From the NCBI GenBank assembly GCA_964652615.1, contig CAZZAT010000001.1, positions 8,070-72,069 of the forward strand: 64,000 nt of DNA, written 5' to 3'. Source of the DNA: an uncultured Candidatus Saccharibacteria bacterium (GTDB lineage: Bacteria; Patescibacteriota; Minisyncoccia; Phycocordibacterales; Phycocordibacteraceae). A program made the translations under genes and the position numbers. Positions 11,133 to 50,133 of the stretch are shown in pieces (position 1 is the first letter of the stretch; each line of letters opens with the position of its first letter). The notes beneath the pieces are model-generated. The model saw nothing but the letters and a program-made list of their open reading frames with translations, made no database searches and had not been told where the DNA came from.

Positions 11133-11156
11133 GTTGTCTGGGACACTGTTGGAACC
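11133..11156 (+). promoter_or_regulatory. Copy b of recurrent motif (GTTGTCTGGGACACTGTTGGAACC)
   Basis: In the divergent region between the PIF1 helicase (-) and a small + ORF, about 50 nt upstream of the ATG at 11205. Followed by TTTTCACAACATGTGGTACTTTTTTCTAGAGTTAGAAGGAGG, which includes an SD. Confidence 0.45.
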
Positions 11157-11204: not shown

Positions 11205-11450
11205 ATGAACATTGTGCAAGTTGCTCGTTTCTTTGAAGCTGTTCGAAGAGAAGGTTCTGTCGCCGTGTCTAAAGAATGCCCGAGTCTTACGGAAGGAAAC
11301 TTCCTTAAATTCGATAAGTTTGGACACCTTTGCGCTGACGCAGGATCGCTCGCCTTGCTTTTTTCCGGCTTGGCAGACCCTAATACAAAGGGTGTTGAAG
11401 AGACTGTGCGCAACGAAATGATAGCGTTCGGTGAACGCTACGTTCGATGA
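11205..11450 (+). CDS. Small hypothetical protein (81 aa)
   Basis: ATG preceded by AGGAGG at -12, directly downstream of motif copy b. The track ORF start at 11100 is upstream read-through across the motif. Confidence 0.4.
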   Translation: MNIVQVARFFEAVRREGSVAVSKECPSLTEGNFLKFDKFGHLCADAGSLALLFSGLADPNTKGVEETVRNEMIAFGERYVR

Positions 11451-11520
11451 AGAAACGAAACCGCTCCAGAGATGGGGCGGTTTCTTGCTGGCAGCTTGGG
11501 ACGAAGTTAGAACTTTACTC

Positions 11521-11952
11521 TTAGCCTTTCAGGTTGAGCGGAGTTTGTACCTCGTCAATTGGTACCTTAAACAAATCTCTGCTTTCTAGCCTTATTTGAG
11601 CACCTCCAACAAGAGCTGCTAGTAGAAAAGAGGCAATAGCCCATCTCATCGCATTGCGCGAATTTTCCCTCGCCTCTTGTAGTTCAAGGTAGTCTATGTA
11701 CGTTGATGCTCCAGAGCCGGAAAGAAAATATCTGTGTTCTCCGTCTCCTTTGTGGTGCGAACCTAGATGAGCGATCAAGGGAGGGTCTCCTTGGATTTCT
11801 CCCATCATGAATCGCTGAATCCAAGTCCACTCCTCATCATCATTAGCGCATGCCGCTTGAAGCTCGCTCATGGTAAAACCAACCGACCCGCGGTCAGACG
11901 CCCACTTAAGGACACGAGTGAATAAGTATTTATCCTTTGAATTGTTGCGCAT
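11521..11952 (-). CDS. Hypothetical protein with C-terminal TM segment (143 aa)
   Basis: ORF only; hydrophobic stretch AIASFLLAALVGGAQI near the C-terminus. Confidence 0.4.
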   Translation of the reverse strand: MRNNSKDKYLFTRVLKWASDRGSVGFTMSELQAACANDDEEWTWIQRFMMGEIQGDPPLIAHLGSHHKGDGEHRYFLSGSGASTYIDYLELQEARENSRNAMRWAIASFLLAALVGGAQIRLESRDLFKVPIDEVQTPLNLKG

Positions 11953-14858: not shown

Positions 14859-15236
14859 TTAGTAACGCTTTGGCTTGGTTCTTGGCCAAAGGAGATAGGC
14901 AAGACCAAGCGTTCCAATCACGAGCGCTATGAGCCCGTATTTCTCCCTTTCGGCACGCACCAAAATCATGCGCCACGGTGAAGGCTCAATAAAAAGCACA
15001 TCACTTACGGGCGGCTCAGAGGGCGCGACTTCGACAACCTCAACGGGTAAGGCAGGGGTTGCTTCGCGCACTTCCGGTTCTTGCGCCTCCAGTGTTTCTT
15101 CTGCAGGCACTTCCTCTTCGAGCACTTCATCAAGCGTCACCTGCGGCGTTTGCGCTGGCTCGGGCTTTGCCTCAACAGCAAACCCGAGCACAAAACATGC
15201 AACAGGAACGAGAATGAACAGATGCCATACTTTCAT
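14859..15236 (-). CDS. Acidic, Pro/Glu-rich protein with signal peptide and C-terminal TM plus basic tail
   Basis: Signal peptide, PE-rich low-complexity middle, and a C-terminal hydrophobic segment followed by RTKPKRY. Confidence 0.4.
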   Translation of the reverse strand: MKVWHLFILVPVACFVLGFAVEAKPEPAQTPQVTLDEVLEEEVPAEETLEAQEPEVREATPALPVEVVEVAPSEPPVSDVLFIEPSPWRMILVRAEREKYGLIALVIGTLGLAYLLWPRTKPKRY

Positions 15237-15304
15237 GGCTTTTCCCCAAAACGAGCGAGGGGAATCCTCGCGTATTCGTATAAAACTATGAGATTGACTT
15301 TATG

Positions 15305-16198
15305 TCAATTCCCTTCGTATGCAGCCCTCAATGCTACTACATCAAACTTCTTCATCTGAAGAAAAGCCTTCGTAACGCGAGCAACCTGTTCTTTGCTTCC
15401 CGTACGCATCATTTCGTCCATTTCCTTTGGCACTATCTGCCACGAGACGCCGTACTCGTCTTTAAGCCACCCGCACTGCTCCGCTTCTGGCACGGCTGAA
15501 AGCGCAGTCCAGTACCTATCAATCTCTTCTTGTGAGTCGCAGCGCACAATGAGCGACAGTGCTTCGGTAAACGTGAACTGATGCGAGAGCCCGCTATCAA
15601 GCGCCATGAAAGTGTGTCCAAAAAGAGTAAACTCTCCGTGCTTTATTGTTCCCACAGGATCCTTCTCGCTGTCGCCTTCTTCGTACCTGGCAGTGAAGGT
15701 AATGGCAGAGTCAGGAAAGAGCGAGGTGTATTTCTGCATCGCTTCTTCAGCTTTTCCGTGCACCGCTCCCGTGAACATAAACGAAGGAGAGACGCGATCT
15801 TTGACCATACTTTGGTCCTTAAAGAAGTTTAATTGCCACGAAACGCCATAACGGTCGTTGAGCCACACATACTTTGCTTCCCATGGATACCATTGAAGAG
15901 GCATGAGTGCCGTGCCTCCCTCAAGAAGCGTTGCTGCAAGACGGTCTATCTCCTCCTCTGAAACACACTGATATGAAAGAGAAATAGCAGGCGTGAAAGA
16001 AAAGAGAGGTCCTGCACTTATCGCATCAATCTGGTACCCCTGAATACTAAACGATACGACATCTACCGAACCTGAAGGAGTATCGGTGAGCACCGAGCTT
16101 TGAAGGATGTTTGAGTCTCCCCCAAAGAGAGACGTGTAGAAAGCGGCGGCTTCTTTTGCTTCTTTGTTGAACCAGAGGTGGGGGACTATTTTTTGCAT
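15305..16198 (-). CDS. VOC-superfamily protein with tandem PhnB-like domains
   Basis: N-terminus MQKIVPHLWFNKEAKEAAAFYTSLF is repeated later as LFPDSAITF...; this glyoxalase/PhnB-like signature is duplicated in one polypeptide. Confidence 0.55.
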   Translation of the reverse strand: MQKIVPHLWFNKEAKEAAAFYTSLFGGDSNILQSSVLTDTPSGSVDVVSFSIQGYQIDAISAGPLFSFTPAISLSYQCVSEEEIDRLAATLLEGGTALMPLQWYPWEAKYVWLNDRYGVSWQLNFFKDQSMVKDRVSPSFMFTGAVHGKAEEAMQKYTSLFPDSAITFTARYEEGDSEKDPVGTIKHGEFTLFGHTFMALDSGLSHQFTFTEALSLIVRCDSQEEIDRYWTALSAVPEAEQCGWLKDEYGVSWQIVPKEMDEMMRTGSKEQVARVTKAFLQMKKFDVVALRAAYEGN

Positions 16199-22471: not shown

Positions 22472-23128
22472 ATGAATATCCGTGAACTTGCTAGAGACGC
22501 GTTCCCTCCGGAGCTTCTTGAGATACCCGAGCCTCCAGAGCGTCTCTACGCGCGCGGCGCATGGCCAAAGGAAGAAACGAAATATCTTGCCGTGGTTGGT
22601 TCGCGTGCCCTTACGCCGTATGGCCGTTTCGCATGCGAGCACCTCATTACAGGCCTCAAGGGGTATCCTGTCTCCATCGTTTCAGGACTTGCGCTTGGCG
22701 CTGATGCCTGCGCGCATCAAGCTGCATTAGACGCAGGGCTCCATACTATTGCTGTGCTTGGTTCAGGCTGTGATGATGCGTCCATATACCCGAGAGCACA
22801 TGCAGGACTTGCAAAAGACATCTTGAAAAGTGGCGGCCTTATTCTTTCGGAACAGCCTGCGGGGTATAAGGCGCAACCGTATGATTTCCCAAAGCGAAAT
22901 CGCATCGTCGTGGGACTCTCGCATGCAGTCCTTGTCATTGAGGCGGGAGAAAAGTCTGGAACCCTTATCACCGCTCGTCTTGCAAGCGAATATAATCGAG
23001 ATTTATTGTGCGTCCCGCATCGCATAGGAGACCCGAACAGTATCGGATCGCATCTCTTTCTACGGCTCGGCGCAGCGCACATTGCAGCCCCGGAGCATAT
23101 TCTTGAGGTTCTTGGTTTGCAAAAATAA
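22472..23128 (+). CDS. dprA: DNA processing protein DprA/Smf
   Basis: Rossmann-like LAVVGSRALTPYGRF...IVSGLALGADACAHQAAL...TIAVLGSG, which is the DprA signature. Confidence 0.75.
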   Translation: MNIRELARDAFPPELLEIPEPPERLYARGAWPKEETKYLAVVGSRALTPYGRFACEHLITGLKGYPVSIVSGLALGADACAHQAALDAGLHTIAVLGSGCDDASIYPRAHAGLAKDILKSGGLILSEQPAGYKAQPYDFPKRNRIVVGLSHAVLVIEAGEKSGTLITARLASEYNRDLLCVPHRIGDPNSIGSHLFLRLGAAHIAAPEHILEVLGLQK

Positions 23129-30042: not shown

Positions 30043-30128
30043 GCCGCGGTGATGAAATTGGTAGACATAGGGGTCTCAAAATCCCCTGCTGGAAACGGCG
30101 TGCGGGTTCGAGTCCCGCCTGCGGCACC
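30043..30128 (+). tRNA. tRNA-Leu (anticodon CAA), class II with long variable arm
   Basis: Acceptor GCCGCGG/CUGCGGC, D-arm with AAUUGGUAGAC, anticodon loop CUCAAAA (CAA), variable arm GCUGGAAACGGCGU, T-arm GCGGG-UUCGAGU-CCCGC, discriminator A, and CC encoded. Confidence 0.8.
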
Positions 30129-30129
30129 T

Positions 30130-30705
30130 ATTGAATCTGAAAGAGCCGAGAGGCTTGCGTATATAGTTGGAGTTGCTCTCGGCGATGGAAATCTTTCTTG
30201 TCCAAACGGCAGGGCCACGCGTCTGCGAATTACTTGTGATACAAAATATCCAAGACTTGGAAGGGAGATTAGAAAATCACTATTGTTCCTTCTACCTCGC
30301 AACAAAGTCTCTATCGTTTTAAGAAACGGATCCAATTGTTTTGATATCAGCGTATATTCGAATCAATTGAATCTATGGATGCCATGGCGAGTGGGTCTTG
30401 GATCAAAAATAAAGCAAAAAGCACGCGTCCCTGCATGGGTATGGACCAGCCCGTTATATATGAAAGCGTGCTTAAAGGGCCTTATACAAACAGATGGTTG
30501 TATATATGTAGACCGCGGGTATCCAATGATTAACTTCACAAATCACTGTCGTGAATTGGCGGAAGATGTAAGAGACATGTTACTTCAACTCAATTTTAGA
30601 GCTTCATTCATGCAGTTTCGCGTATCTACTGGCATACGCTATACCGTCAAGATTGCTCGAGAGACAGCTAGATTCAAACGTGAGTTGCGTCTATACAAGG
30701 CATAA
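30130..30705 (+). CDS. Double-motif LAGLIDADG homing endonuclease
   Basis: Two LAGLIDADG motifs, LAYIVGVALGDGNL and LKGLIQTDGCIYV, about 100 aa apart. The frame is continuous with the 3' end of tRNA-Leu, and the only in-frame ATG (30049) lies inside the tRNA D-arm. Confidence 0.7.
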   Translation: MESERAERLAYIVGVALGDGNLSCPNGRATRLRITCDTKYPRLGREIRKSLLFLLPRNKVSIVLRNGSNCFDISVYSNQLNLWMPWRVGLGSKIKQKARVPAWVWTSPLYMKACLKGLIQTDGCIYVDRGYPMINFTNHCRELAEDVRDMLLQLNFRASFMQFRVSTGIRYTVKIARETARFKRELRLYKA

Positions 30706-32451: not shown

Positions 32452-33277
32452 GAAGGAGAAGCTCAAAATCCTCTGTATCGCAGGACCCACCGCCTCCGGG
32501 AAGACGGCGCGTGCGGTTTTACGCGCAAAGGAACGTAACGGAGAAATTATCTCTGTTGATTCAAGGCAAGTGTACGAGATGCTTGATATCGGCAGCGAAA
32601 AGATATCTCCCGAAGAGATGCAAGGAGTCCCCCACCACCTCATTGGTTTTAAGGACCCCAGAGAGGCATATAGCGCAGGCGACTTCGTGCAGGACGCTTC
32701 ACGGCTCATCAAGGAGATATCCTCACGCGGCAAGCTCCCTATCCTTGCCGGGGGCACGCATTTCTATTTCGATGCTCTCTTGCACGGCCTCCCCCCAGAA
32801 TCTCCGGACGATCCTGTACTTCGAAAAGAATTTGAGAAGCTCTCAACCGAAGAATTGTTTGCCCGTATCAAAGCAAAAGATCCACGACGTGCAGAGACGC
32901 TTGATCCGCACAACCGCCGCCGCCTCATACGCGCCCTCGAGCTCGTATACACGCATGGTAGTGTCCCGCTTCGATCTCCGAAGGAGGAATACGACGTCAC
33001 ATGGGAAATACTCCTTCCAGAACGGGAGGAACTTCGACAGCGCATCAAGGAGCGCGAAGCATTGAAGTTCCCTCGCGGGCTCATAGACGAAGTGCGCCGC
33101 GTGCGTGCGTACGTAGGAGACGAGCGCCTTAATGAGCTCGGCCTTGAGTATCGAATTGTGGGCGAATACTTACGAGGAGAACGAAGTGAAGAATCGATGC
33201 TTCCTGCGCTTAATGCAAAACTCTTTCAGTACGCACGAAGACAGGAGGCGTGGCTACGGAAGTTGCAAAAAGGTTAG
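32450..33277 (+). CDS. miaA: tRNA dimethylallyltransferase
   Basis: ILCIAGPTASGKT P-loop and DSRQVY motif. Start at MKEKLKIL (32450) or MPMKEK (32444), divergently overlapping the pyrF start. Confidence 0.8.
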   Translation: MKEKLKILCIAGPTASGKTARAVLRAKERNGEIISVDSRQVYEMLDIGSEKISPEEMQGVPHHLIGFKDPREAYSAGDFVQDASRLIKEISSRGKLPILAGGTHFYFDALLHGLPPESPDDPVLRKEFEKLSTEELFARIKAKDPRRAETLDPHNRRRLIRALELVYTHGSVPLRSPKEEYDVTWEILLPEREELRQRIKEREALKFPRGLIDEVRRVRAYVGDERLNELGLEYRIVGEYLRGERSEESMLPALNAKLFQYARRQEAWLRKLQKG

Positions 33278-34452
33278 CGGTAAATTGAGAAGTGATTTCC
33301 TGTTATATGGGAATACGCAGGTTCAGAACTGCAATGAGCCTCAACACCTAACGCCTTTACAGCATCTCTAAGGTTGCAGTCTGTAGTTTCAAAAACCGCA
33401 CGCATGCCAGAGAAAGAGTTCCCGAAAGCTGCAATTTGTGCAGCAGTAGGATTTGCCGTCCGTATAGCAACATCGACACAAGTACCGTTTCCATGACACG
33501 CATTGCTATGGTTCACTGTTGGCGGCCACATTTCAGTAATCTGCCAACTCATGTTTGTCTCTACGTCTTGAAGCTCTGCAAGCAAATCTCTATGAATCAT
33601 GCAGTCTGATACTGGAGTAGCTAGAACAGGACTGGTCTGCGGATCACATCCGCCGTTAACATTGCATCCCGCTCCGCTATTGCATGATGTTCCGGAACCC
33701 TTGCGCGGCACGCCAGTAACAACCGTACAATTAGCGCATGTGATTCCCTGTCCTGTAGCTTGTCCGGAAGGGACTCTACAGCGAGTTGGAAGAATTCTGC
33801 TTTCAGTCGTATTGTCTTCGTAGCGTATAGAAAGAGCCACACCTTCTGTTGCTCCTATGGGAGTACCTATTTCAGTCACGGTTCCGCGCGTATAGGTATT
33901 CTCTCCAAGCTTCATACACTCAACTGCATCACCTACATCAAAGTCACCAGTGCCAGTGCCCGTTCCGGTCCCTGTACCTGTCCCCGTACCTACAGGCGCT
34001 TCAACTGGTGCCTGCTCCTCTATACACTTCTTACCACTATTTTCATTCAAAATAGAGTTCCAAGGACCAAAGCTTCCCGCATCCTCGTTATACAGAGCCT
34101 TCATCACGAAATCAACGATAAGCCATGCGGAAAGCGCAATCACGAACCCTATGACCGCATTTGTGAGTATTGCACGCGCCTGTTCCTTCCCTTTCGGATT
34201 GATGGAGCTCGCCATGAAAAGTGCACCAGCGTATGCCGCTACCAAAACAAAGAAGATGGTAGCGAGAGAGATGCCAAGATTGATGATGTTCTGAACCGTC
34301 TGAAGAACGCATCCCCAGTCAGGGGCAGATTCTCGACACACACATTCTCCGCTGATTATAGGACCGAAGAAATTCGCGGTAGCGGCATATGCTGCTAAAG
34401 GGACGAATGTAAGAAAACCTGCAAGGACAGAAAGGAGGAGTGCTCGACGCAT
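33274..34452 (-). CDS. Fusion protein: N-terminal pilin-like two-TM domain, (Thr-Gly)7 linker, C-terminal Cys-rich domain
   Basis: A signal peptide is followed by a Cys pair and then IINLGISLATIFFVLVAAYAGALFMASSINPKGKEQARAILTNAVIGFVIALSAWLIVDF, which resembles the pilin-like segments at 44593-46597. Then comes TGTGTGTGTGTGTG, and then a ~220 aa domain with about 16 Cys. Confidence 0.5.
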   Translation of the reverse strand: MRRALLLSVLAGFLTFVPLAAYAATANFFGPIISGECVCRESAPDWGCVLQTVQNIINLGISLATIFFVLVAAYAGALFMASSINPKGKEQARAILTNAVIGFVIALSAWLIVDFVMKALYNEDAGSFGPWNSILNENSGKKCIEEQAPVEAPVGTGTGTGTGTGTGTGDFDVGDAVECMKLGENTYTRGTVTEIGTPIGATEGVALSIRYEDNTTESRILPTRCRVPSGQATGQGITCANCTVVTGVPRKGSGTSCNSGAGCNVNGGCDPQTSPVLATPVSDCMIHRDLLAELQDVETNMSWQITEMWPPTVNHSNACHGNGTCVDVAIRTANPTAAQIAAFGNSFSGMRAVFETTDCNLRDAVKALGVEAHCSSEPAYSHITGNHFSIYR

Positions 34453-34547
34453 ACGGATAGTATATAAGGCTTTACGAGGCCAGGCGTCGCTTTCCCCAGA
34501 CCTCCATTTCTGCTATCGTACTGCTACGAAGAGGCCCTGCCTCTTTC

Positions 34548-34618
34548 GGGTCCATAGTTTAATGGTAGAACGAAGGCCTCCAAATCCTTTGGTCGAGGTT
34601 CGATTCCTCGTGGGCCCG
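34548..34618 (+). tRNA. tRNA-Trp (anticodon CCA)
   Basis: Acceptor GGGUCCA/UGGGCCC (one G-U pair), anticodon loop CUCCAAA (CCA), T-arm CGAGG-UUCGAUU-CCUCG, discriminator G. CCA is not encoded. Confidence 0.7.
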
Positions 34619-34659
34619 CTTTAAAAGTTAAGGCTCCGGATTTCTCCGGAGCCTTGGCT

Positions 34660-35502
34660 TTAGTTTTTAGAGCGGAGTTTCTGAAGCGCAGATTCGTGTT
34701 CGGCAATTTGCCTGCTCCGTTCCTGCTCTTCCTTTCTCTTCTCCAGCTCACGATATGCAGCGCGCGCCAAGATTAAAGCTTGCGCCGATCCGTGCCCTTT
34801 CAGCAATCCATGCTCTACTGAGCCGAACTGATCGACCAAGAGAACTTCGAGTTTGCACAAAGCCTCTGGGTCAAAACTGTCCCAAGCACTAGTGCATTCC
34901 CAGCGGTCGATAGCGAAAGAACCTTTGTTGGGTTCGGGAATCAGCGTCATCACTTTGTCGTGATGATGCAGGACCTCAAGCGCGTTTTGTCTTCCGAAGA
35001 TTGGCACGTACGCGTACGGGCCATCGTCATCAGACTGAACATATACCTTCAACGGCCCCTGATGACCCCAAGCATATTTGCACAGCGATTGAAGAAAGTC
35101 TCGGATTGGTTCCGCCGGATAGCCGGAGCCCCACAACACGTTCCCGGGAGTACGGACAAACTTAATGACCGCACGCACCGTCTCTGTGTCGTAGGTGTTC
35201 TTCAGATGACTGACATCAATCCTCTTAAAGAAGTGGTCGGCGAGGACCCGTACTGCCTTATGCCGCACCTGGTCTTGAGGTTCGTAGGTCTGCACCCATC
35301 CTTCTGCAAGTCCAAGGAGGAAGCGTATTCTTTCACCGCTTTCTTTCTTGAGCTCTTTTACGTCCTCAGTCGGGAGCGTAGCAGAGAAGACGTGGTGTAG
35401 AAGGCCAAGCGCCGTCGGAATGTCCCGAACAGCAACCCAACGCTTCTTCCAAGTCTGCCAGGAAATCGCGGGAGCAAGCTCACGCTGTTTCTCGGTAGTC
35501 AT
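34660..35502 (-). CDS. Hypothetical protein (281 aa), first gene of the tRNA-Trp-adjacent cassette
   Basis: Start at MTTEKQRE (35502). Upstream on its own strand lie the 26 bp repeat and TTGACC-16nt-TATATA. No known motif. Confidence 0.45.
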   Translation of the reverse strand: MTTEKQRELAPAISWQTWKKRWVAVRDIPTALGLLHHVFSATLPTEDVKELKKESGERIRFLLGLAEGWVQTYEPQDQVRHKAVRVLADHFFKRIDVSHLKNTYDTETVRAVIKFVRTPGNVLWGSGYPAEPIRDFLQSLCKYAWGHQGPLKVYVQSDDDGPYAYVPIFGRQNALEVLHHHDKVMTLIPEPNKGSFAIDRWECTSAWDSFDPEALCKLEVLLVDQFGSVEHGLLKGHGSAQALILARAAYRELEKRKEEQERSRQIAEHESALQKLRSKN

Positions 35503-35588
35503 GGTATTTCCCTTTCTCTTGCCCTGTTTTTGGGCTCTATAGGAACACATTTGTTCCGAGACGACTATATACCCCCTTATTCAAATCG

Positions 35589-35614
35589 GTCAATTCCGTT
35601 CGAATAGCGTCCCA
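35589..35614 (+). repeat. 26 bp direct repeat copy 1 (GTCAATTCCGTTCGAATAGCGTCCCA); promoter-associated box
   Basis: Identical 26-mer at 36189-36214, exactly 600 bp away. The next 10 nt (TGGGCCCGCT, 35616-35625) match the 3' end of tRNA-Trp. Read on the minus strand it gives TGGGACGCTATTCGAACGGAATTGAC, which shares TGGGACG.T.TT.GAAC with the 5-copy motif. Confidence 0.5.
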
Positions 35615-35673
35615 TTGGGCCCGCTAAGCAGAAAAAGAAAGTGGCTAACCTTTCGATTAGCCACTCACGAAGT

Positions 35674-36099
35674 TTATTCGGTGCTTGTTGGAAGCAATTT
35701 GCTCCACGCGTCAGCCTGACTTCTAATTTTTGCAGAATGCCCCCTGATTGCAGGCAGGATGTGAATCAGTGCCTTTTCGCACAGGAAAGCAGCGATTTGT
35801 TCGGGATCTTTTTCAATTTCTTTTATTCTTCGACCGAAATCAATATGCGCTTTGATTTCAAGCTTCTGGTCTTGAGAGTACATGGAAAGGACGAAGTGGA
35901 CATCGTACACAACGTAATTGGGATCCGACCATGTCCAAGGATCCACTCGCATAATCTCGATGCGGCTTGCGATAGGCCCAAGAAGTTCCATGAGCCTGAC
36001 CCAACCTATTGCGAAACCAGAAATTTGAGCTTCACTCAATTTCGACGAGTTATTACGATTCCGAGATTGCGCCCAATTTGGCATGCTGAACTTTGTCAT
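35674..36099 (-). CDS. Hypothetical protein (141 aa), second cassette gene
   Basis: ATG at 36099 with AAGGAG at -9. Upstream on its strand are repeat copy 2, a perfect palindrome GGCGTTTGAAACGCC, and a stem-loop. Confidence 0.45.
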   Translation of the reverse strand: MTKFSMPNWAQSRNRNNSSKLSEAQISGFAIGWVRLMELLGPIASRIEIMRVDPWTWSDPNYVVYDVHFVLSMYSQDQKLEIKAHIDFGRRIKEIEKDPEQIAAFLCEKALIHILPAIRGHSAKIRSQADAWSKLLPTSTE

Positions 36100-36188
36100 A
36101 GAACGTACTCCTTGGCGTTTCAAACGCCTCTCATTCCTGCCCTACTTTCAGGACAGGTAGCTGCACTCTGCTCTTCCTATCTAGATTA

Positions 36189-36214
36189 GTCAATTCCGTT
36201 CGAATAGCGTCCCA
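36189..36214 (+). repeat. 26 bp direct repeat copy 2
   Basis: Identical to 35589-35614. Confidence 0.5.
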
Positions 36215-36300
36215 ACGGGGATGCATTAACTTTCCCCCACTACTAATTTATGTGTACGAAAAGGGCGCGGAGTGTTCTCCGCGCCCTCAAGTCATTTAGA

Positions 36301-36939
36301 TTAGCCACTGGTCTTAGGAGCCTCGGCTCTTTCTTTTCGCTCTCGCTCCCTCATCCATTCAGGCTCATTCGCCCGCGCGATGGCGCCGTATCCTTTGCCG
36401 GCGACTTTGCGGGCGTTGTCGAACATGAAGTCCCACAAGTTCCGGATCAAATCAGTGAAGATCCACGCAAGCAAGCTCCATGGCCAATGAAAGATCCACT
36501 TCATGATGAGCGAGACGCGCGAACCGTAGCCACTCAAGCGATTCTCGTATTCCCTGTCTTTCGCCCGTTCAGACGAGTCGTACTTCAGCCGCTCATTCAT
36601 ACGCTTGCGGTATTCGCGCGCATAGAAGTAAAAGCGGATGTTGCTGTAGACGTACCCGACAAAGATATAGCCGAGAACGTATGCCCAAAGATGCAGCGCT
36701 GTGCCCCAGAAGTCGTCGGTAATGAGCGAGCGAGCATCAAAAGGAGTGAAAAAATGCAGCACTGCGACCGTGAGAATCATGAAGAGCAGCGTCCGCCAGA
36801 AGCGGTAGCGCCACCGTTCACTTTCGTAGATGTCGTAGCCCCAGAAGAAGACGGGGAATCCTGAAAAGAACAGGAGGGTCCCGAAGAGGACGTAGGGAGT
36901 GGTGAGCCACCCCGTTACGAGTCCTGCAAGGAATTCCAT
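36301..36939 (-). CDS. Integral membrane hypothetical protein (212 aa), Trp/Tyr/Phe-rich
   Basis: Five or six hydrophobic segments; charged C-terminal tail. Confidence 0.45.
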   Translation of the reverse strand: MEFLAGLVTGWLTTPYVLFGTLLFFSGFPVFFWGYDIYESERWRYRFWRTLLFMILTVAVLHFFTPFDARSLITDDFWGTALHLWAYVLGYIFVGYVYSNIRFYFYAREYRKRMNERLKYDSSERAKDREYENRLSGYGSRVSLIMKWIFHWPWSLLAWIFTDLIRNLWDFMFDNARKVAGKGYGAIARANEPEWMRERERKERAEAPKTSG

Positions 36940-37042
36940 GACTTTTCTCCTTTATGAGAAGACCACTATTGGTCGGTATGAGATTGCCTTTTCAACCTGC
37001 TCCTGTCAACTAAGAAAAACCCCGCTCTTTGCGGGGCTTCTC

Positions 37043-37198
37043 TTACTTCTTCGCTTCCTTGAATACTTCCCTCTTGCGGGTGACCGGATCAAACTTCTTA
37101 TACTCAAGCTTGCGCTCTACTTTCTTCTTATTCTTGCGCGTGAAGTACACCGTATCCGACTTGGTCGACTTCAACTTGATGAGGTGGTCTTGAGACAT
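37043..37198 (-). CDS. rpmG: 50S ribosomal protein L33
   Basis: 51 aa, MSQDHLIKLKSTKSDTVYFTRKNKKKVERKLEYKKFDPVTRKREVFKEAKK, with the bL33 pattern (YxTxKNK...KLExKKFDPVxRKHVxxKE). Missed by the ORF track (<60 aa). Terminator hairpin CCCCGCAAAGAGCGGGG plus T-run at ~37015-37040 on its strand. Confidence 0.8.
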   Translation of the reverse strand: MSQDHLIKLKSTKSDTVYFTRKNKKKVERKLEYKKFDPVTRKREVFKEAKK

Positions 37199-37238
37199 AT
37201 GTAGGGAAGACTGTACCAGAAAGGCTGTATTTGGGCAA

Positions 37239-39929
37239 TTATGCCTCCGCCTTAGCCTTTGGCTTGCGGGTTCTTGAGACAGTACGCTTCACTTCAAAGT
37301 GCGGTTCGGTGCCTTTCATAGAGACGGAGACGGAACCCCCTTCCATGACGCCCTGACCCACCATGAGGGTTGCTATAGGGGTGAGGATTTTATCTTGGAT
37401 AGCGCGCTTCAACGGACGGGCTCCGTACTGCGGGTTGTGTCCAACTTCTGCAAGCCAGAGCTTCACTTCAGGAGCAAGCGTGAGGGTAATGCGCTTCTCT
37501 GCAAGGCGCTTCACCACATCTGCCACCTGCGTATCGACTATCTTCATCAAGGTTTCTTTGCCGAGAATATCGAACATCACAATGTCATCGAGGCGGTTCA
37601 AGAACTCGGGACGAAAGTGCTCTTTGAGTGCCCCCATCACCTTTTCCTTTACCTGTTCGAACTGCATGCTTTCGTCTCCATCGCTAAAGCCAATAGATGC
37701 CATGCGGTCCATAAGCTCTGCGCCAATATTTGAGGTTAGAACAATGATGGTGTTCTTGAAGTTCACCTTGCGGCCCTTGCCGTCAGTCAGGTGTCCTGAA
37801 TCAAGCACTTGCAGCAAGATATTGAATACCTCTGGATGTGCCTTTTCGACTTCATCAAAGAGGACTACGGCATACGGACGATGGCGTATACGTTCAGTGA
37901 GAGATCCCGCCTCTTCATGCCCCACATATCCTGGAGGCGCGCCGATAAGTTTTGCGACGGAATGCTTCTCCATGAATTCCGACATATCAACGCGAACCAA
38001 CGCATCCTTGTCATTGAACATGAATTCTGCAAGCCGACGCGATAGCTCTGTCTTACCAACGCCTGTTGGACCAAGAAAGAGGAAGGAGCCGATAGGCTTG
38101 TTCGGATCTGAAATACCTACGCGTGAGCGCTTCACAGCATCCGTAATGGCTTTCACTGCCTTGTCTTGCCCAATGACGGCATCCTTCAAAGCTTCCTCCA
38201 TGCGTGCAAGTTTTGCAGCCTCTTCTTCGAGCATCTTTGCAACTGGAATACCCGTCCAGCGCGAGACAACACCCGCTATCTCACCCTCCGTCACTTCCTC
38301 TTGGAGGACGCGGCGTGATTTCTGCAGTGTCTTCAGACGCTTCGTCTTAGTCTCAAGTTCTTTCTGAAGAAGCGGAATTTTACCGTAGCGAATTTCAGCG
38401 GCAGTACCAAGGTCCGCAATCGCTTCAGCGTTCTCCGCTTGTACGCGGAACTTATCAAGCTCGCCCTTCAAGGTGCGTATTGCGTGCAAGACGTCTTTCT
38501 CATTCTTCCACTTAAGCTCAAGCTCGGAGGTTTCTTCTTTCAGGTCTGCCATCTCGGTATCAATCGCTTTCAGGCGCTCTTTGATTTCTTTTGCACGAGC
38601 GGGAGACAGCGTTCCTGAATTCGATTCATCTTTTTCAAGCGCCTGGCGCTCAATAGTGAGGCGGCGGATTTTCCTATCTGTCTCTTCAAGCTTTGGCGGC
38701 TTGTTTTCAAGCGCAATACGAAGTCCGGATGCAGCTTCGTCGATAAGGTCGATGGCTTTGTCAGGAAGGAAGCGGTCTGAAATGTAGCGGCTTGAAAGCT
38801 CGACTGCAGACACTATCGCGCCGTCGGTGATGCGCACGCCATGGAACAGCTCGTACTTATCGCGAAGTCCGCGCAAGATAGCGATAGCGTCTTCAACGGA
38901 AGGCTCTTGCACGTATACGGGCTGGAAACGGCGAGTCAGTGCTCCGTCTTTTTCAATATGCTGCTGATATTCGCGAAGCGTGGTTGCGCCGATAATGCGG
39001 ATATCGCCGCGAGAAAGTGCAGGCTTTAGCATATTCGATGCATCCATGGCGCCTTCAGCAGCGCCCGCTCCCACAAGCGTATGCAGCTCGTCAACAAAAA
39101 GAAGTACCTTCCCTTCTGCGCGCTCTACTTCCTTCATCACGCTTTTCATGCGCTCTTCAAATTCACCGCGATACTTCGTGCCCGCTATCATAAGGCCAAG
39201 ATCAAGCGAGAGCAGTTCCTTATTCTTCAAAGATTCCGGCACGTCTCCCTGCGCAATGCGAGAAGCAAGACCCTCTGCAATGGCAGTCTTTCCGACTCCT
39301 GGTTCGCCAATCAAAACTGGATTATTCTTGGTGCGGCGCGAAAGAATTTGGATGACGCGATGAATTTCCGTATCGCGTCCAATGACGGGATCAAGTGCAT
39401 TCTCGGAAGCAAGCTTGGTAAGATTTTTGGTGTACTTTGCAAGCGCGCGGAATTTCTTAGGCTCGATAATATGGCCATCTTTGGAATTCTTCAATTCCTT
39501 TAGCACCTGCATCACCGTCTCCGCATCTATCTTGAAGCGCGCAAGGATATCTCCTGCAGGCCCTGGGTACTCAAGCGTTGCTACAAACAAGTGTTCGGTA
39601 CCCACAAACGCTTCATTCATCTTGGCTGCAACTTTTCCTGCAGCTTCAAGCGCCTGTGCAAGGTCAGGAGTGAGATACAGCTGATATGAGGGGGAGAGCG
39701 TTGCAGACGTTTCAGGAGCTTCAAGCGTCTCAAGAAGCGTGTCGGCAAGCAATAAGCTGTCGACATCCATGTGGTCGAGTACGGAAAAGACAAGCGACTC
39801 TTCTTGATGTACAAGTGCGGCAAGAAGATGCAGCGGCGATACATGGTTTTGCCCGCGCTCTATGGCAAGCTCATGTGCTTTTCGTATCGCTTCTTTAGCT
39901 TTGGTGGTGAAGTGTTTGAAAGGAGGCAT
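37239..39929 (-). CDS. clpB: ATP-dependent chaperone ClpB
   Basis: Two AAA+ modules (GEPGVGKT and GPTGVGKT) and a long coiled-coil middle domain typical of ClpB. Start at [13 protein letters not shown]. Confidence 0.85.
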
Positions 39930-39960
39930 ATAGAGAAGGACGATTAGAGGACTCTTGCCA

Positions 39961-40680
39961 TTACGGAATCTGCGCAAGCACGCTCTCTGCTACAGAGCCT
40001 GCGATATACGTGGTACCGCCTGCAAAAAAACCAAGCACTTCCCCAGAGAGACCGACTACCGATGAGCCTGCAAGAAGGCCGGGCAGGGTTGCTTGTAGGC
40101 GTCCTTCTTCGACCTTAGAAATAATGCCGGTGACGGCGCTTCCATCTTGCGAAAGCGCAATCGCAGTCTGTCCCGCCTTTATCGCAGAGGTGTCCGTAAA
40201 GCGAGGAGCTGCGCTGGGTGGAAGAGCGACGTCTCCTGAAACAACATACGCCTTAAGCGCTCCCTGCTCTGCTACCCTATCCGCTTCAACTGATGTGCCG
40301 TTTGAAAAGACAAGTGTTACATGTCCTGGAAGATCAGCTGCGGTAAGGACTGCGCGCTTTGCAGGAACATAGGTGCCAGCAGCAACCGGAGCATCAGCAC
40401 CAGCTCGGTAGATGATGACGCGGCGCGCGGCGCTTCCCGCAATTGCAGAAGTAAGAAGCTCTTCGGTAGTAGGGCCTCCATCGCTTTCAACAACTGACGG
40501 GACCTGGGTTGTTACGGTCTCAATGGTGTGGTCAACGATGCGATTCACTGTTTGCGTAACAGTGGTTGGCGCCTCATCAAGCAAAGAAACAGTTAAAACG
40601 CCGGTAGCGATAGCGACGACGAAGTTGACGAGGATGGTGAGGAGCAGAAGCTGTGATTTCGACAAATCTTCTATATCCAT
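39961..40680 (-). CDS. Membrane-anchored Ala/Val/Thr-rich hypothetical protein (239 aa)
   Basis: N-terminal TM; no catalytic motif recognised. Confidence 0.4.
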
Positions 40681-48549: not shown

Positions 48550-48577
48550 TGCTGGCTGTCTGGGACGATGTTAGAAC
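48550..48577 (+). promoter_or_regulatory. Copy c of recurrent motif (GCTGGCTGTCTGGGACGATGTTAGAACC)
   Basis: About 20-30 nt upstream of the candidate ncRNA. Followed by the perfect hairpin GGGCGGAGTGG-CATAG-CCACTCCGCCC at 48607-48633. Confidence 0.45.
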
Positions 48578-48589
48578 CTTTCTAACTTC

Positions 48590-49035
48590 GGAACCAAAAG
48601 CAGCGGGCGGAGTGGCATAGCCACTCCGCCCTTCCGGCTACAGCTCGGTGTCAATTCCGCGCTTGCCGTTGCCGTACCTTGCTATAGGAACCTCTCTGGT
48701 ATGGAACATTTTTGACAAAGAATCGTGTTGGAGTAGACTCGCCTTCGGTGGTTTAGGCAAACGTTTGTGGTCTGCCGAGGGTTTGACTCCCTCAATGGCC
48801 GTTGTTTTTGGAAGACGGAGACAATCGGGAGTTCGATTCTCCTGAGACGGACTGATAGCTCATCCAGCGTCGCGCAGCCCTGTGCGCCTCACGGCGCACA
48901 TACTAGGTGGGAGACGAAAGTCGCCAATGAGACACCACTCGCGCTGGAAACAAGACTCGGGAGCCTTCGGGTGTGACGGGTCGTCGTAGGTCGCTTAAAC
49001 CACCACCTCGCCACCTCATGATATGAGGTGGTTTT
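48590..49035 (+). ncRNA. Candidate structured non-coding RNA of unknown class (~430 nt)
   Basis: A 680 bp gap with no credible ORF. Bounded by motif copy c upstream and an intrinsic terminator at 49011-49040. Contains a tRNA T-arm-like element GGGAG-UUCGAUU-CUCCU (48829-48846), a cUUCGg tetraloop, and several GC-rich helices. Confidence 0.35.
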
Positions 49036-49040
49036 TGTTT
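49011..49040 (+). terminator. Intrinsic terminator (CCACCTCAT-GATA-ATGAGGTGG then TTTTTGTTT)
   Basis: Perfect 9 bp stem followed by a T-run on the + strand only. Confidence 0.65.
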
Positions 49041-49058: not shown

Positions 49059-49086
49059 GCTGGCTGCCTGGGACGCTGTTGGAACC
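49059..49086 (+). promoter_or_regulatory. Copy d of recurrent motif (GCTGGCTGCCTGGGACGCTGTTGGAACC)
   Basis: About 55 nt upstream of the ATG at 49140; followed by TTTTCACTACATATGCTAGGCT. Confidence 0.45.
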
Positions 49087-49139: not shown

Positions 49140-49538
49140 ATGTCCCTTGATAGAACTGCTGCTTTTCGAGCGAAGGTTGTCTCGGCAAAGGAAAAAGAAG
49201 CGGAGGAGCGTAATGCTCAGGAAGCAGCTAGGGATGCGGAACTCGAACAACTACGAGCCCAGCATCCCGAAGTCGTCGCCCTTTTAAAAAGCGACGACGG
49301 GTGGTTCTGGCCACGCCCCCATGAACCTCTCCCGGAGAAAAAGGCTCCTGCAGGATGCTTCTTTCTCCTCGGAGGCTGGTACGATAATCAAGATGGTCGT
49401 GGTTCTGGCAGAACCTTCTGGAAGCTCAAAGTCGTTGATGCTTCCGTTCGCGAAGTCATCGATAAGATAATAAAGCTTGAGAATACTGGCATGACCAGAA
49501 CAACAGATGACATCTCGAAAGTCAGATTCTTCGGTTAG
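49140..49538 (+). CDS. Hypothetical protein (132 aa), N-terminal K/E/A-rich helix
   Basis: ORF downstream of motif copy d; no motif recognised. Confidence 0.45.
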   Translation: MSLDRTAAFRAKVVSAKEKEAEERNAQEAARDAELEQLRAQHPEVVALLKSDDGWFWPRPHEPLPEKKAPAGCFFLLGGWYDNQDGRGSGRTFWKLKVVDASVREVIDKIIKLENTGMTRTTDDISKVRFFG

Positions 49539-49597: not shown

Positions 49598-49624
49598 CTG
49601 GCTGTCTGGGACGATTATGGAACA
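49598..49624 (+). promoter_or_regulatory. Copy e of recurrent motif (GCTGGCTGTCTGGGACGATTATGGAAC)
   Basis: Overlaps the stop codon region of the minus-strand HEPN-like gene. It is oriented so that a transcript from it would be antisense to that gene. Confidence 0.4.
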
Positions 49625-50133
49625 TCTTTATCTACGGATTTGGAGCGTAGTTCTGCAATACTTTGAGCTAGCACCTCGTCGGTAATTCCGTACTTCATTC
49701 GCACAGGTTTGAAGAGTTCCTCAAGTAGCGAGTCAGCATAGCGGAATATCTCTGTTATTTCGTCTAACTCGGCAATCATTCTTGCCCTTCCTTCCGATGA
49801 ATTAAAGTAAATGACTCTGTCTCGGAAATAGTGGTGTATAAGCCAATTCCGTTTTTCAAGCGCATAAGATAGGGATTCAGATAGATTTGGCGGTATGGCA
49901 GTTATGTCTTCCAGTATGGAAATCATCTTTCCTAAAGTACGTTTAGATTGTTCTTCCGTATAAGAATCAAAAAGTGCTTCCCATTCTTTTGTTTCTAGAT
50001 TTCCACGCTTTTTCGGTAATAAGTCTAGATAGATAAGCGCACCTATTAACTCTTGTTCAAGGCATTGAGCACCATAAGCAGCGAGACCGAATCTTGCATA
50101 TACCTCTCTGACCTCCTCTTCTTCGGGAGACAT
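49615..50133 (-). CDS. HEPN-motif protein (172 aa), putative
   Basis: All-helical ORF containing EKRNWLIHHYF, which fits the HEPN Rx4-6H motif (R-N-W-L-I-H). No partner nucleotidyltransferase gene is visible. Confidence 0.4.
   Translation of the reverse strand: MSPEEEEVREVYARFGLAAYGAQCLEQELIGALIYLDLLPKKRGNLETKEWEALFDSYTEEQSKRTLGKMISILEDITAIPPNLSESLSYALEKRNWLIHHYFRDRVIYFNSSEGRARMIAELDEITEIFRYADSLLEELFKPVRMKYGITDEVLAQSIAELRSKSVDKDVP

Follow-up and report, generated by a model that had tools for sequence, protein, structure and literature searches.

What is the role of a DNA element that stands, letter for letter the same, in front of two unrelated genes? The case lies in a 64-kb window (the whole 64,000-nucleotide stretch analysed here) of an uncultured Candidatus Saccharibacteria bacterium, next to the gene for tRNA-Trp(CCA). 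The 26-mer TGGGACGCTATTCGAACGGAATTGAC (the box) occurs twice on the minus strand, at 35589-35614 and 36189-36214, each time upstream of a minus-strand gene and with a start-to-start distance of exactly 600 bp, as an earlier note on this DNA had reported. That note took the locus for a small island integrated at the tRNA, or for the stump of one. We favor a different answer, namely a regulatory promoter module shared among the genes of a variable accessory-gene slot. Taken whole, this answer commands middling confidence. The parts of it that sequence comparison carries best are the anatomy of the promoter, its conservation before unrelated cargo in different genomes, the provision of one promoter and one terminator per gene, structured leaders particular to each gene, and a slot in which the flanks stay and the content changes.

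The box as a putative promoter module

Judged by its sequence, the box is the -35 hexamer, together with the 21 nt upstream of it, of a predicted sigma-70-type promoter. The proposal that the TTGAC at its 3' end doubles as a -35 element held up on comparison. TTGACC of copy 1 is followed by TATATA at 16 nt or by TATAGT at 18 nt, which overlap in a -10 region at 35564-35571 (minus strand), and a promoter scan called TTGACC-18-TATAGT with 10 of 12 matches. TTGACT of copy 2 is followed by CAGAGT at 17 nt. Across five genomes the module reads (A)GCGGGCCC-NN-TGGGACG-NN-AT(T/C)CGAACGGAATTGAC, with 24-26 of the 26 box positions identical. L-numbers denote the comparison contigs; L009 and L010 are Candidatus Saccharibacteria metagenome-assembled genomes that serve as GTDB species representatives, and L013 is a contig from the Joint Genome Institute (JGI). 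All four other contigs have the box within the interval between rpmG and tRNA-Trp. Seven of the eight module copies, each upstream of a gene with a Shine-Dalgarno (SD) sequence, carry TTGAC and, 16-18 nt downstream, a -10-like hexamer whose second position is A and whose sixth is T (TATAGT in three copies, TAGTGT, TAGACT, TATCCT and CAGAGT). These intact copies (n = 7) are the two of the window, two in L006, and one each in L009, L010 (copy B) and L013. The eighth, L010 copy A, keeps the upstream part, but GGAGCTC replaces GGAATTGAC, and neither TTGAC nor a -10 nor a gene follows. The two L010 copies (A, 2468-2505; B, 2781-2818) are direct, lie 313 bp apart and flank a small reversed gene.

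What the module precedes varies. In the window it stands before gene 1, of a 280-aa family, and before the 141-aa gene 2; both L006 genes are of the 280-aa family as well, while L010 has a 79-aa protein there and L013 a small one of about 105 aa. By tblastn these four kinds show no relation to one another. The best homologue of gene 1 has 40% protein identity. The box is thus far better conserved than the proteins, which speaks for selection on the DNA element as such and for a stronger constraint on this non-coding box than on the coding sequence. Could the two boxes nevertheless be a neutral local duplication of a functionless promoter fragment? The likeness of the two copies does extend over 42 nt at 83% identity, reaching 11 nt into the promoter spacer, as a segment duplication would leave it. 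The conservation of the box across genomes whose proteins are about 40% identical contradicts this explanation, as do eight copies of a wider motif, described below, where 0.13 are expected, and we regard it as hardly credible. Descent of genes 1 and 2 from a 600-bp tandem duplication was likewise rejected, the two proteins giving a BLASTP E of 3.4. The exact 600-bp spacing is unmatched elsewhere, other arrays of the same motif being spaced by 313, 358, 508, 538 and 993 bp. No third 26-mer copy was found in the window at ≤3 mismatches, and none in 100 shuffles.

How might such a module work? Within it the pentamers GGGCC, GGGAC, CGAAC and TTGAC are phased at 9, 11 and 9 bp. Boxes of the OmpR, PhoB and GlnR type have an 11-bp repeat unit. 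The module resembles sigma-70 promoters with a phased upstream activator site (class I) in its canonical -35 and -10 elements at 16-18 nt, in its conservation from -36 to about -72, and in the TGGGAC and TWGAAC of the wider motif, which are set at a distance of 11 bp and adjoin the -35 or take its place. It differs from them in being G+C-rich with a palindromic 5' part and in having some copies with no promoter behind them. In the mechanism we envisage, the 37-nt module AGCGGGCCC-NN-TGGGACG-NN-ATTCGAACGGAATTGAC would head independent transcription units between rpmG and tRNA-Trp in one Candidatus Saccharibacteria subclade. Its G+C-rich upstream part would be the putative binding site of a DNA-binding regulator, and the genes behind it would be switched together. 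The structured leader of each gene could then add a translational control of its own through sequestration of the SD. Genes 1-3 each have a separate intrinsic terminator (34624-34661, 35639-35666 and 36262-36287). Since each gene is its own transcription unit, the co-regulation suggested in the earlier note is plausible via the shared box, although no regulator was met among the window open reading frames (ORFs) scanned.

With three positions left free, the exact box was found only in two GTDB species representatives (L009 and L010) and one JGI contig (L013), and three scans of 2.9 million viral contigs returned no motif. Matches in four actinobacterial metagenome contigs and one Ruminococcaceae contig were set aside as chance, having the degenerate box pattern and nothing else in common. 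Actinobacteria are the hosts of Saccharibacteria. The four actinobacterial-looking contigs (L011, L012, L014 and L015, from JGI) are homologous and high in GC, and in them GGGACG-N5-CGAACGGAATTGAC comes shortly before a conserved ORF (VDDYAGRVLADRYRLP...); the likeness is probably due to chance at a single locus. In the window itself, ATACGAAGGGAATTGAC at 15304-15320 (minus strand) has two mismatches to the 3' part of the box; it lies at the end of the gene at 15305-16198 and upstream of the gene at 14859-15236, and may be an ordinary -35 region. A CtsR-like repeat in the spacer of copy 1 was dismissed, the other copies not conserving it.

A variable slot between rpmG and tRNA-Trp

What does the module stand in front of, and in what kind of place? 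The tRNA-Trp gene occupies 34548-34619 on the plus strand (Rfam tRNA, 64.6 bits; also called by ARAGORN). It is separated from the convergent gene 1 by a 17-bp hairpin at 34624-34661 that would serve both as a bidirectional intrinsic terminator. The three minus-strand genes had been given as 281, 141 and 212 aa; the strand and the last two lengths stand, and the first protein has 280 aa. Gene 1 (34660-35502) is headed by its leader (35510-35562) and by module copy 1, AGCGGGCCCA-A-TGGGACGCTATTCGAACGGAATTGAC, at 35589-35625. Next come the terminator of gene 2 (35639-35666), gene 2 itself (35674-36099), its leader (36100-36174) and module copy 2 at 36189-36224, whose upstream arm GCATCCCCGT is degenerate. 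The terminator hairpin at 36262-36287 belongs to gene 3 (36301-36939), a hydrophobic, predicted membrane protein; this gene has no box upstream, and its membership of the module array is uncertain. All these elements from gene 1 onwards lie on the minus strand. The far border is rpmG (37043-37198, minus strand), which encodes ribosomal protein L33, with ClpB beyond it (37239-39977).

These borders are conserved while the content between them is not. The gene order ClpB-L33 ... tRNA-Trp-pilin is kept in the window, L010 and L017 with differing cargo in between, and one flank of the slot is visible in each of L006, L009 and L013. We therefore take the locus as a variable accessory-gene slot with a shared control element; an integrated island is not demonstrable. 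Minimal mobile elements of Neisseria were reportedly described by Saunders and Snyder, and in Snyder et al. 2007 (as cited in PMC2784325). The interval from rpmG to tRNA-Trp has the conserved flanking genes and the differing content by which such elements are recognised. The likeness includes a core-flanked slot, whole-gene cassettes that differ between genomes, a competent lineage and a lack of mobility genes. Here, unlike there, a conserved promoter module is part of each cassette, and copies of a related motif lie at the cassette borders. The content of the slot would turn over between ClpB-L33 on one side and tRNA-Trp-pilin on the other, most likely by homologous recombination after natural transformation, as has been proposed for the Neisseria elements (PMC2784325), with the repeated module offering extra homology and a ready-made promoter. 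Two indications point to exchange by transformation: DprA is encoded in the window at 22472-23128, and Saccharibacteria are naturally competent (PMC10633639, PMC10187176).

Codon scores of genes 1-3 range from -0.03 to -0.045 as compared with +0.09 to +0.16 for core genes, and the GC content of the cargo is native (0.53 and 0.46 vs 0.51 for the window). The atypical codon usage could equally reflect low expression or young genes. None of genes 1-3 has a match in Pfam, PADLOC, PHROG or NCBIfam, and a word-indexed homologue search returned the query proteins alone. The 141-aa product of gene 2 is an orphan; a single-sequence AlphaFold2 model (predicted local distance difference test, pLDDT, 69; predicted template modelling score, pTM, 0.66) gives an alpha-beta3-alpha2 fold, for which only weak structural matches were obtained, resembling the HPF/YfiA ribosome hibernation factors (beta-alpha-beta-beta-beta-alpha fold). 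Look-ups of gene 3 and of the pilin gave matches from the same strain only, and the exact L33 protein of the window was not on record in the database.

The surroundings are ordinary. Upstream of tRNA-Trp lies the gene for a type IV secretion system (T4SS)-pilin-like protein (PF18895; 33274-34452, minus strand), which contains a (Gly-Thr)7 run (33940-33990) coded by a short tandem repeat that could vary in length. The other content of the window is core: UvrB, TGT, topoisomerase I, RelA, ParB, GyrA, FtsZ, IF2, S1 and DprA. Its two 912-aa ORFs, considered as possible relatives, are unrelated to each other. A LAGLIDADG_3 homing-endonuclease ORF at 30043-30705 on the plus strand (PF14528, from Logan gene calls) starts in or directly after tRNA-Leu(CAA) (30043-30128), and may be connected with group I introns, which have been reported from tRNA genes of Patescibacteria (PMC13011429). 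In three runs of a single study, Logan contigs match the window at 100% identity.

Gene-less copies and the likeness to tRNA-Trp

Why should the module resemble the end of the tRNA next to which it lies? The 10-mer TGGGCCCGCT, which forms the 3' end of tRNA-Trp (34611-34620), recurs in direct orientation at 35616-35625 and nowhere else in the window, where 0.05 copies are expected. The earlier note had read TTCGAAT..TGGGCCCGCT as a mimic of the tRNA end and as attR, with genes 1 and 2 as the stump of an island integrated in the 3' end of the resident tRNA-Trp. The repeat is real, and the codon-atypical genes 1-3 also speak for an island. The T-loop part of the mimicry fails, as TTCGAAT stands 10 nt before the second copy whereas TTCGATT stands 5 nt before the first, and there is no complementarity for a T stem; ARAGORN and Rfam were also blank at the box, so that it was rejected as a tRNA fragment. 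The attR reading fares no better, because the GGGCCCGC beside the box is invariant in the L006 and L013 modules even though their own tRNA-Trp reads GGGACCGC. Being constant where tRNA-Trp reads GGGACC/GGGACCGC, GGGCCCGC belongs to the conserved module; it was not copied from the resident tRNA. The island stump is opposed further by the gene-1 family, which occupies the same position in L006, L022 and L017, in the last two with neither a box nor a tRNA-like boundary. Add to this the native GC content, the lack of an integrase among the window ORFs scanned and the fact that comparison of related tRNA-Trp loci yielded no empty site, and integration of an island becomes very improbable. The note had itself named two observations that would speak against it, and both were made: the gene family stands at this site in contigs where no boundary linked to the tRNA exists, and six unrelated sites of the window have the core of the box.

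This recurrence corrects the view of the box as confined to the locus. As aligned, the 26-mer is a local variant of a wider motif, TGGGACG-N3-TTNGAAC, of which the window holds eight copies at ≤3 mismatches to CTGGGACGNTGTTNGAACC, where 0.13 are expected. Besides the two boxes there are six, all at intergenic sites on the plus strand and often preceded by GCTGGCTG. All eight lie outside protein-coding sequence, except that one runs 10 nt into the end of a gene at its stop codon, and every copy is oriented the same way as the gene that it accompanies. The copy at 11138-11156 precedes an 81-aa orphan gene (11205-11450) and that at 49068-49086 a 132-aa orphan gene (49140-49538), and both have an extended -10 about 18 nt after TTGGAA. 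The copy at 48560-48578, with 0 mismatches to the consensus, precedes a structured non-coding region (48579-49036). The remaining three have no -10 behind them. Of these, CTGGGACGATGTTGGACCC at 1248-1266 follows a terminator and faces a convergent orphan (1298-1930); the copy at 11496-11514 follows the terminator of the 81-aa gene and faces the convergent orphan at 11521-11952; and that at 49606-49624 follows the terminator of the 132-aa gene and overlaps the stop codon of the convergent orphan at 49615-50133. The 458-nt region at 48579-49036 (plus strand), between two motif copies, has no convincing ORF and has its own intrinsic terminator (~49006-49035). It includes a T-arm-like GGGAGTTCGATTCTCC and folds far better than shuffled sequences (z = -3.65); ARAGORN found no tmRNA in it and Rfam no family, and it may be an undescribed structured RNA.

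Several points weigh against the view of the box as part of a shared regulatory promoter. A scan of window ORFs gave neither a response regulator nor a transcription factor of another kind. The box is conserved at a fixed distance to the -35, as a regulon box should be, yet near-consensus copies exist (1248, 11496 and 49606, and 2468-2505 of L010) with no co-directional gene or -10, and these gene-less copies are left unexplained if the motif is purely a promoter or activator site. Counted by the lack of a promoter or gene behind them, such copies come to four of the wider motif plus L010 copy A. The likeness of the module to the end of tRNA-Trp is left as a coincidence. The comparative sample is also small, with the exact box in two GTDB representatives and one JGI contig.

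Would these points be better met if the motif, including the module of the Trp locus, were an att-like recombination site at the borders of cassettes, on which a recombinase encoded elsewhere acts in trans? Small integrase-less cassettes would then accumulate in tandem, also at the 3' end of tRNA-Trp, in the manner of cis-mobilizable element (CIME) accretion, of decayed tRNA-targeting elements or of a promoter-carrying analogue of integrons. Arrays of motif, gene, terminator and motif at four loci (11138/11496; 48560/49068/49606; 36206/35606 followed by tRNA-Trp; 2468/2781 in L010) are in line with such a site, and gene-less copies, single or terminal, look like empty or terminal sites. Codon usage is atypical in genes that lie no more than 150 nt from a motif copy (mean score 0.001 vs 0.065, Mann-Whitney p = 0.0016, in a crude ORF set of which some members are spurious). 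The module can also be written as a head-to-head imperfect palindrome, AGCGGGCCCA-N-TGGGACGCT, with arms that match two alleles of the tRNA-Trp acceptor 3' strand. The tRNA end and trailer of L013, CTGGGACCGCTTTAGAACC, match the motif consensus at 15 of 19 positions, the trailer of L010, TGGGCCCGCCTTCGAAC, echoes the core of the box, and the gene-1 unit has TGGGCCCGCT on either side in direct orientation. The sequencing run SRR15237806 adds an assembly break exactly at 35616, a sign of a second haplotype. Its contigs L003, L005 and L026 correspond to 34590-35645, 35616-37779 and 32584-34619 of the window, and they break with a 30-nt (k-1) overlap at 35616-35645, where the other two samples assemble through. 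Such a break suggests that the other haplotype shares the gene-2 side and differs to the left of TGGGCCCGCT; an empty slot junction in it would read ...CCTCGTGGGCCCGCTAAGCAG. The left break, at 34590-34619, is inside the conserved tRNA, misses by one the position that a simple deletion between repeats would give and is uninformative.

Other evidence speaks against a recombination site. The earlier note had found no integrase, and we met no recombinase among genes 1-3 and about 40 other window ORFs scanned. No cassette is seen at two sites, and as the cargo is orphan its mobility is untraceable. The gene-1 family is a long-term resident at tRNA-Trp, also in the module-less L017 and L022. In serial integration at a tRNA the oldest insert is expected farthest away, and gene 1, tRNA-proximal in the window, misfits this order. 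The motif has no long attC-like imperfect palindrome, a search for dif/Xer-like symmetry in the wider motif was negative, and the motif is missing from the viral contigs. Overall an att-like site seems rather unlikely, though its probability is not negligible; what weight it has comes mainly from the gene-less near-consensus copies and from the likeness to the tRNA end. The boldest form of the idea is that TGGGACG-N3-TTNGAAC and its palindromic tRNA-Trp-like variant are the recombination site of a previously unknown Saccharibacteria gene-capture system, with promoter-carrying single-gene cassettes inserted, stacked and swapped at these sites by a recombinase in trans. This we consider decidedly doubtful.

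Known systems offer partial parallels to such a site. Integron cassettes usually lack promoters and have attC at their 3' end. The arrays here share with the integron system (IntI, attI, attC) single genes split by a recurring short site and many orphans. They differ from it in that no IntI was found in the scanned window ORFs, and in the site, which has 19-37 nt, lacks the bipartite palindrome of attC (R''/L''-L'/R') and lies 5' of the gene with a promoter. Elements that target tRNA genes and their integrase-less derivatives, such as streptococcal CIME accretion and the Prochlorococcus tycheposons (10.1101/2020.12.28.424599), are alike in having a variable array 3' of a tRNA, small cargo and, as at the Trp locus, repeats resembling the tRNA 3' end at unit borders. 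In contrast to them, the repeat here is only 10 nt, departs in two of five genomes from the sequence of the resident tRNA and comes with no integrase found; the oldest gene is tRNA-proximal, and the units are single-gene, 0.3-1 kb long and equipped with their own promoters.

The gene-1 family and its leader

Returning to the promoter module as the preferred reading, what is the gene behind its copy 1? The earlier note had seen no recognisable domain in any of the three proteins, which agrees with the blank domain searches, but gene 1 is no orphan. When the library was scanned exhaustively with HMMER, 36 further representatives of its family came to light at about E ≤ 1e-3, with 196-336 aa and the shared motifs W..W..RW, PTALGLLH, ER..FLL.LADGH, KAF.VLA..FFK, KLEELAL and GS.AA. 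For 29 members of the family nothing was returned from Pfam, PADLOC, PHROG or NCBIfam, and the family profile was also blank against PDB sequences. Gene 1 therefore belongs to an undescribed protein family of about 270 aa. A single-sequence structure model of it (pLDDT 49) was unusable. Homologues convergent to tRNA-Trp occur in three other contigs: L006 has two tandem paralogues, a terminator and tRNA-Trp; L022 has a homologue, a terminator and tRNA-Trp; and L017 has L33, a homologue, a 214-aa gene and tRNA-Trp. Elsewhere the homologue lies between peptidase S41 and other genes (L018 and L021) or adjoins tRNA-Ile (L023).

Family members also share what precedes the start codon. The dyad GGAACA-AATG-TGTTCC (35542-35557), one of two dyads that had been considered operator-like, is hairpin 1 of the gene-1 leader; hairpin 2 is at 35521-35535. 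All nine upstream regions of gene-1-family genes have the same layout, in the order TATAGT, pyrimidine run, hairpin 1, TTGCATAGGC, hairpin 2, ATAGA and AAGGAG, and a covariance model built from three leaders recovers the remaining six, so that nine of nine match. Hairpin 1 shows compensatory changes from G-C to A-U at pair 3 and from A-U to G-C at pair 4, and pair 4 of hairpin 2 is C-G, U-A or G-C across leaders. At three base pairs both sides have thus changed in compensation, and pairing is present in 42-43 of the 45 cells of each hairpin, in an alignment that was fitted to the covariance model and whose pairing counts lean towards structure. That alignment was used because hairpin 1 was misaligned in the MAFFT alignments given to RNAalifold.

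Both dyads are real, and that of gene 1 is a conserved RNA hairpin whose loop has 3, 4, 5 or 7 nt among homologues. As a Cheo- or LexA-type operator it was rejected, the spacers being N6 and N5, not N4, and varying between homologues. The pyrimidine run, an anti-SD in character, pairs with the SD in the minimum-energy fold of 5-6 of the nine leaders. In gene 2 the hairpin CCTGTCCT-GAAAGT-AGGGCAGG (36136-36157) and the 15-nt perfect palindrome GGCGTTTGAAACGCC (36114-36128), confirmed as first described, abut the SD AAGGAG; the leader with these two hairpins has a minimum free energy of -27.4 kcal/mol (z = -3.9), and it has no homologues for a structural test.

The leaders matched no Rfam family, even at E ≤ 1-5, and that of gene 1 is a candidate cis-regulatory RNA outside all Rfam families. 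Its two conserved, compensated hairpins and SD-pairing pyrimidine stretch are like those of 5' leaders that sequester the SD, among them small riboswitches, protein-binding leaders and RNA thermometers. In addition to the lack of an Rfam match, it is unlike them in showing no loop or junction that could be recognised as the conserved motif of a known class.

What is new here is a conserved promoter and border motif family, and a leader RNA with its protein family, both in a variable Saccharibacteria slot. The genomes of Saccharibacteria and other Patescibacteria are very small, and little is known of how they regulate genes or gain accessory ones. A conserved promoter module could reveal a regulator and its regulon, and could be a useful portable promoter for new genetic tools in the phylum. 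The slot between rpmG and tRNA-Trp would be a place where strain-specific genes, possibly for host interaction, come and go, and the undescribed family of about 270 aa, headed by a conserved structured leader, would add a candidate new cis-regulatory RNA. If the motif were in truth a recombination site, it would represent a new gene-capture mechanism, an integron- or CIME-like route by which reduced genomes acquire accessory genes.

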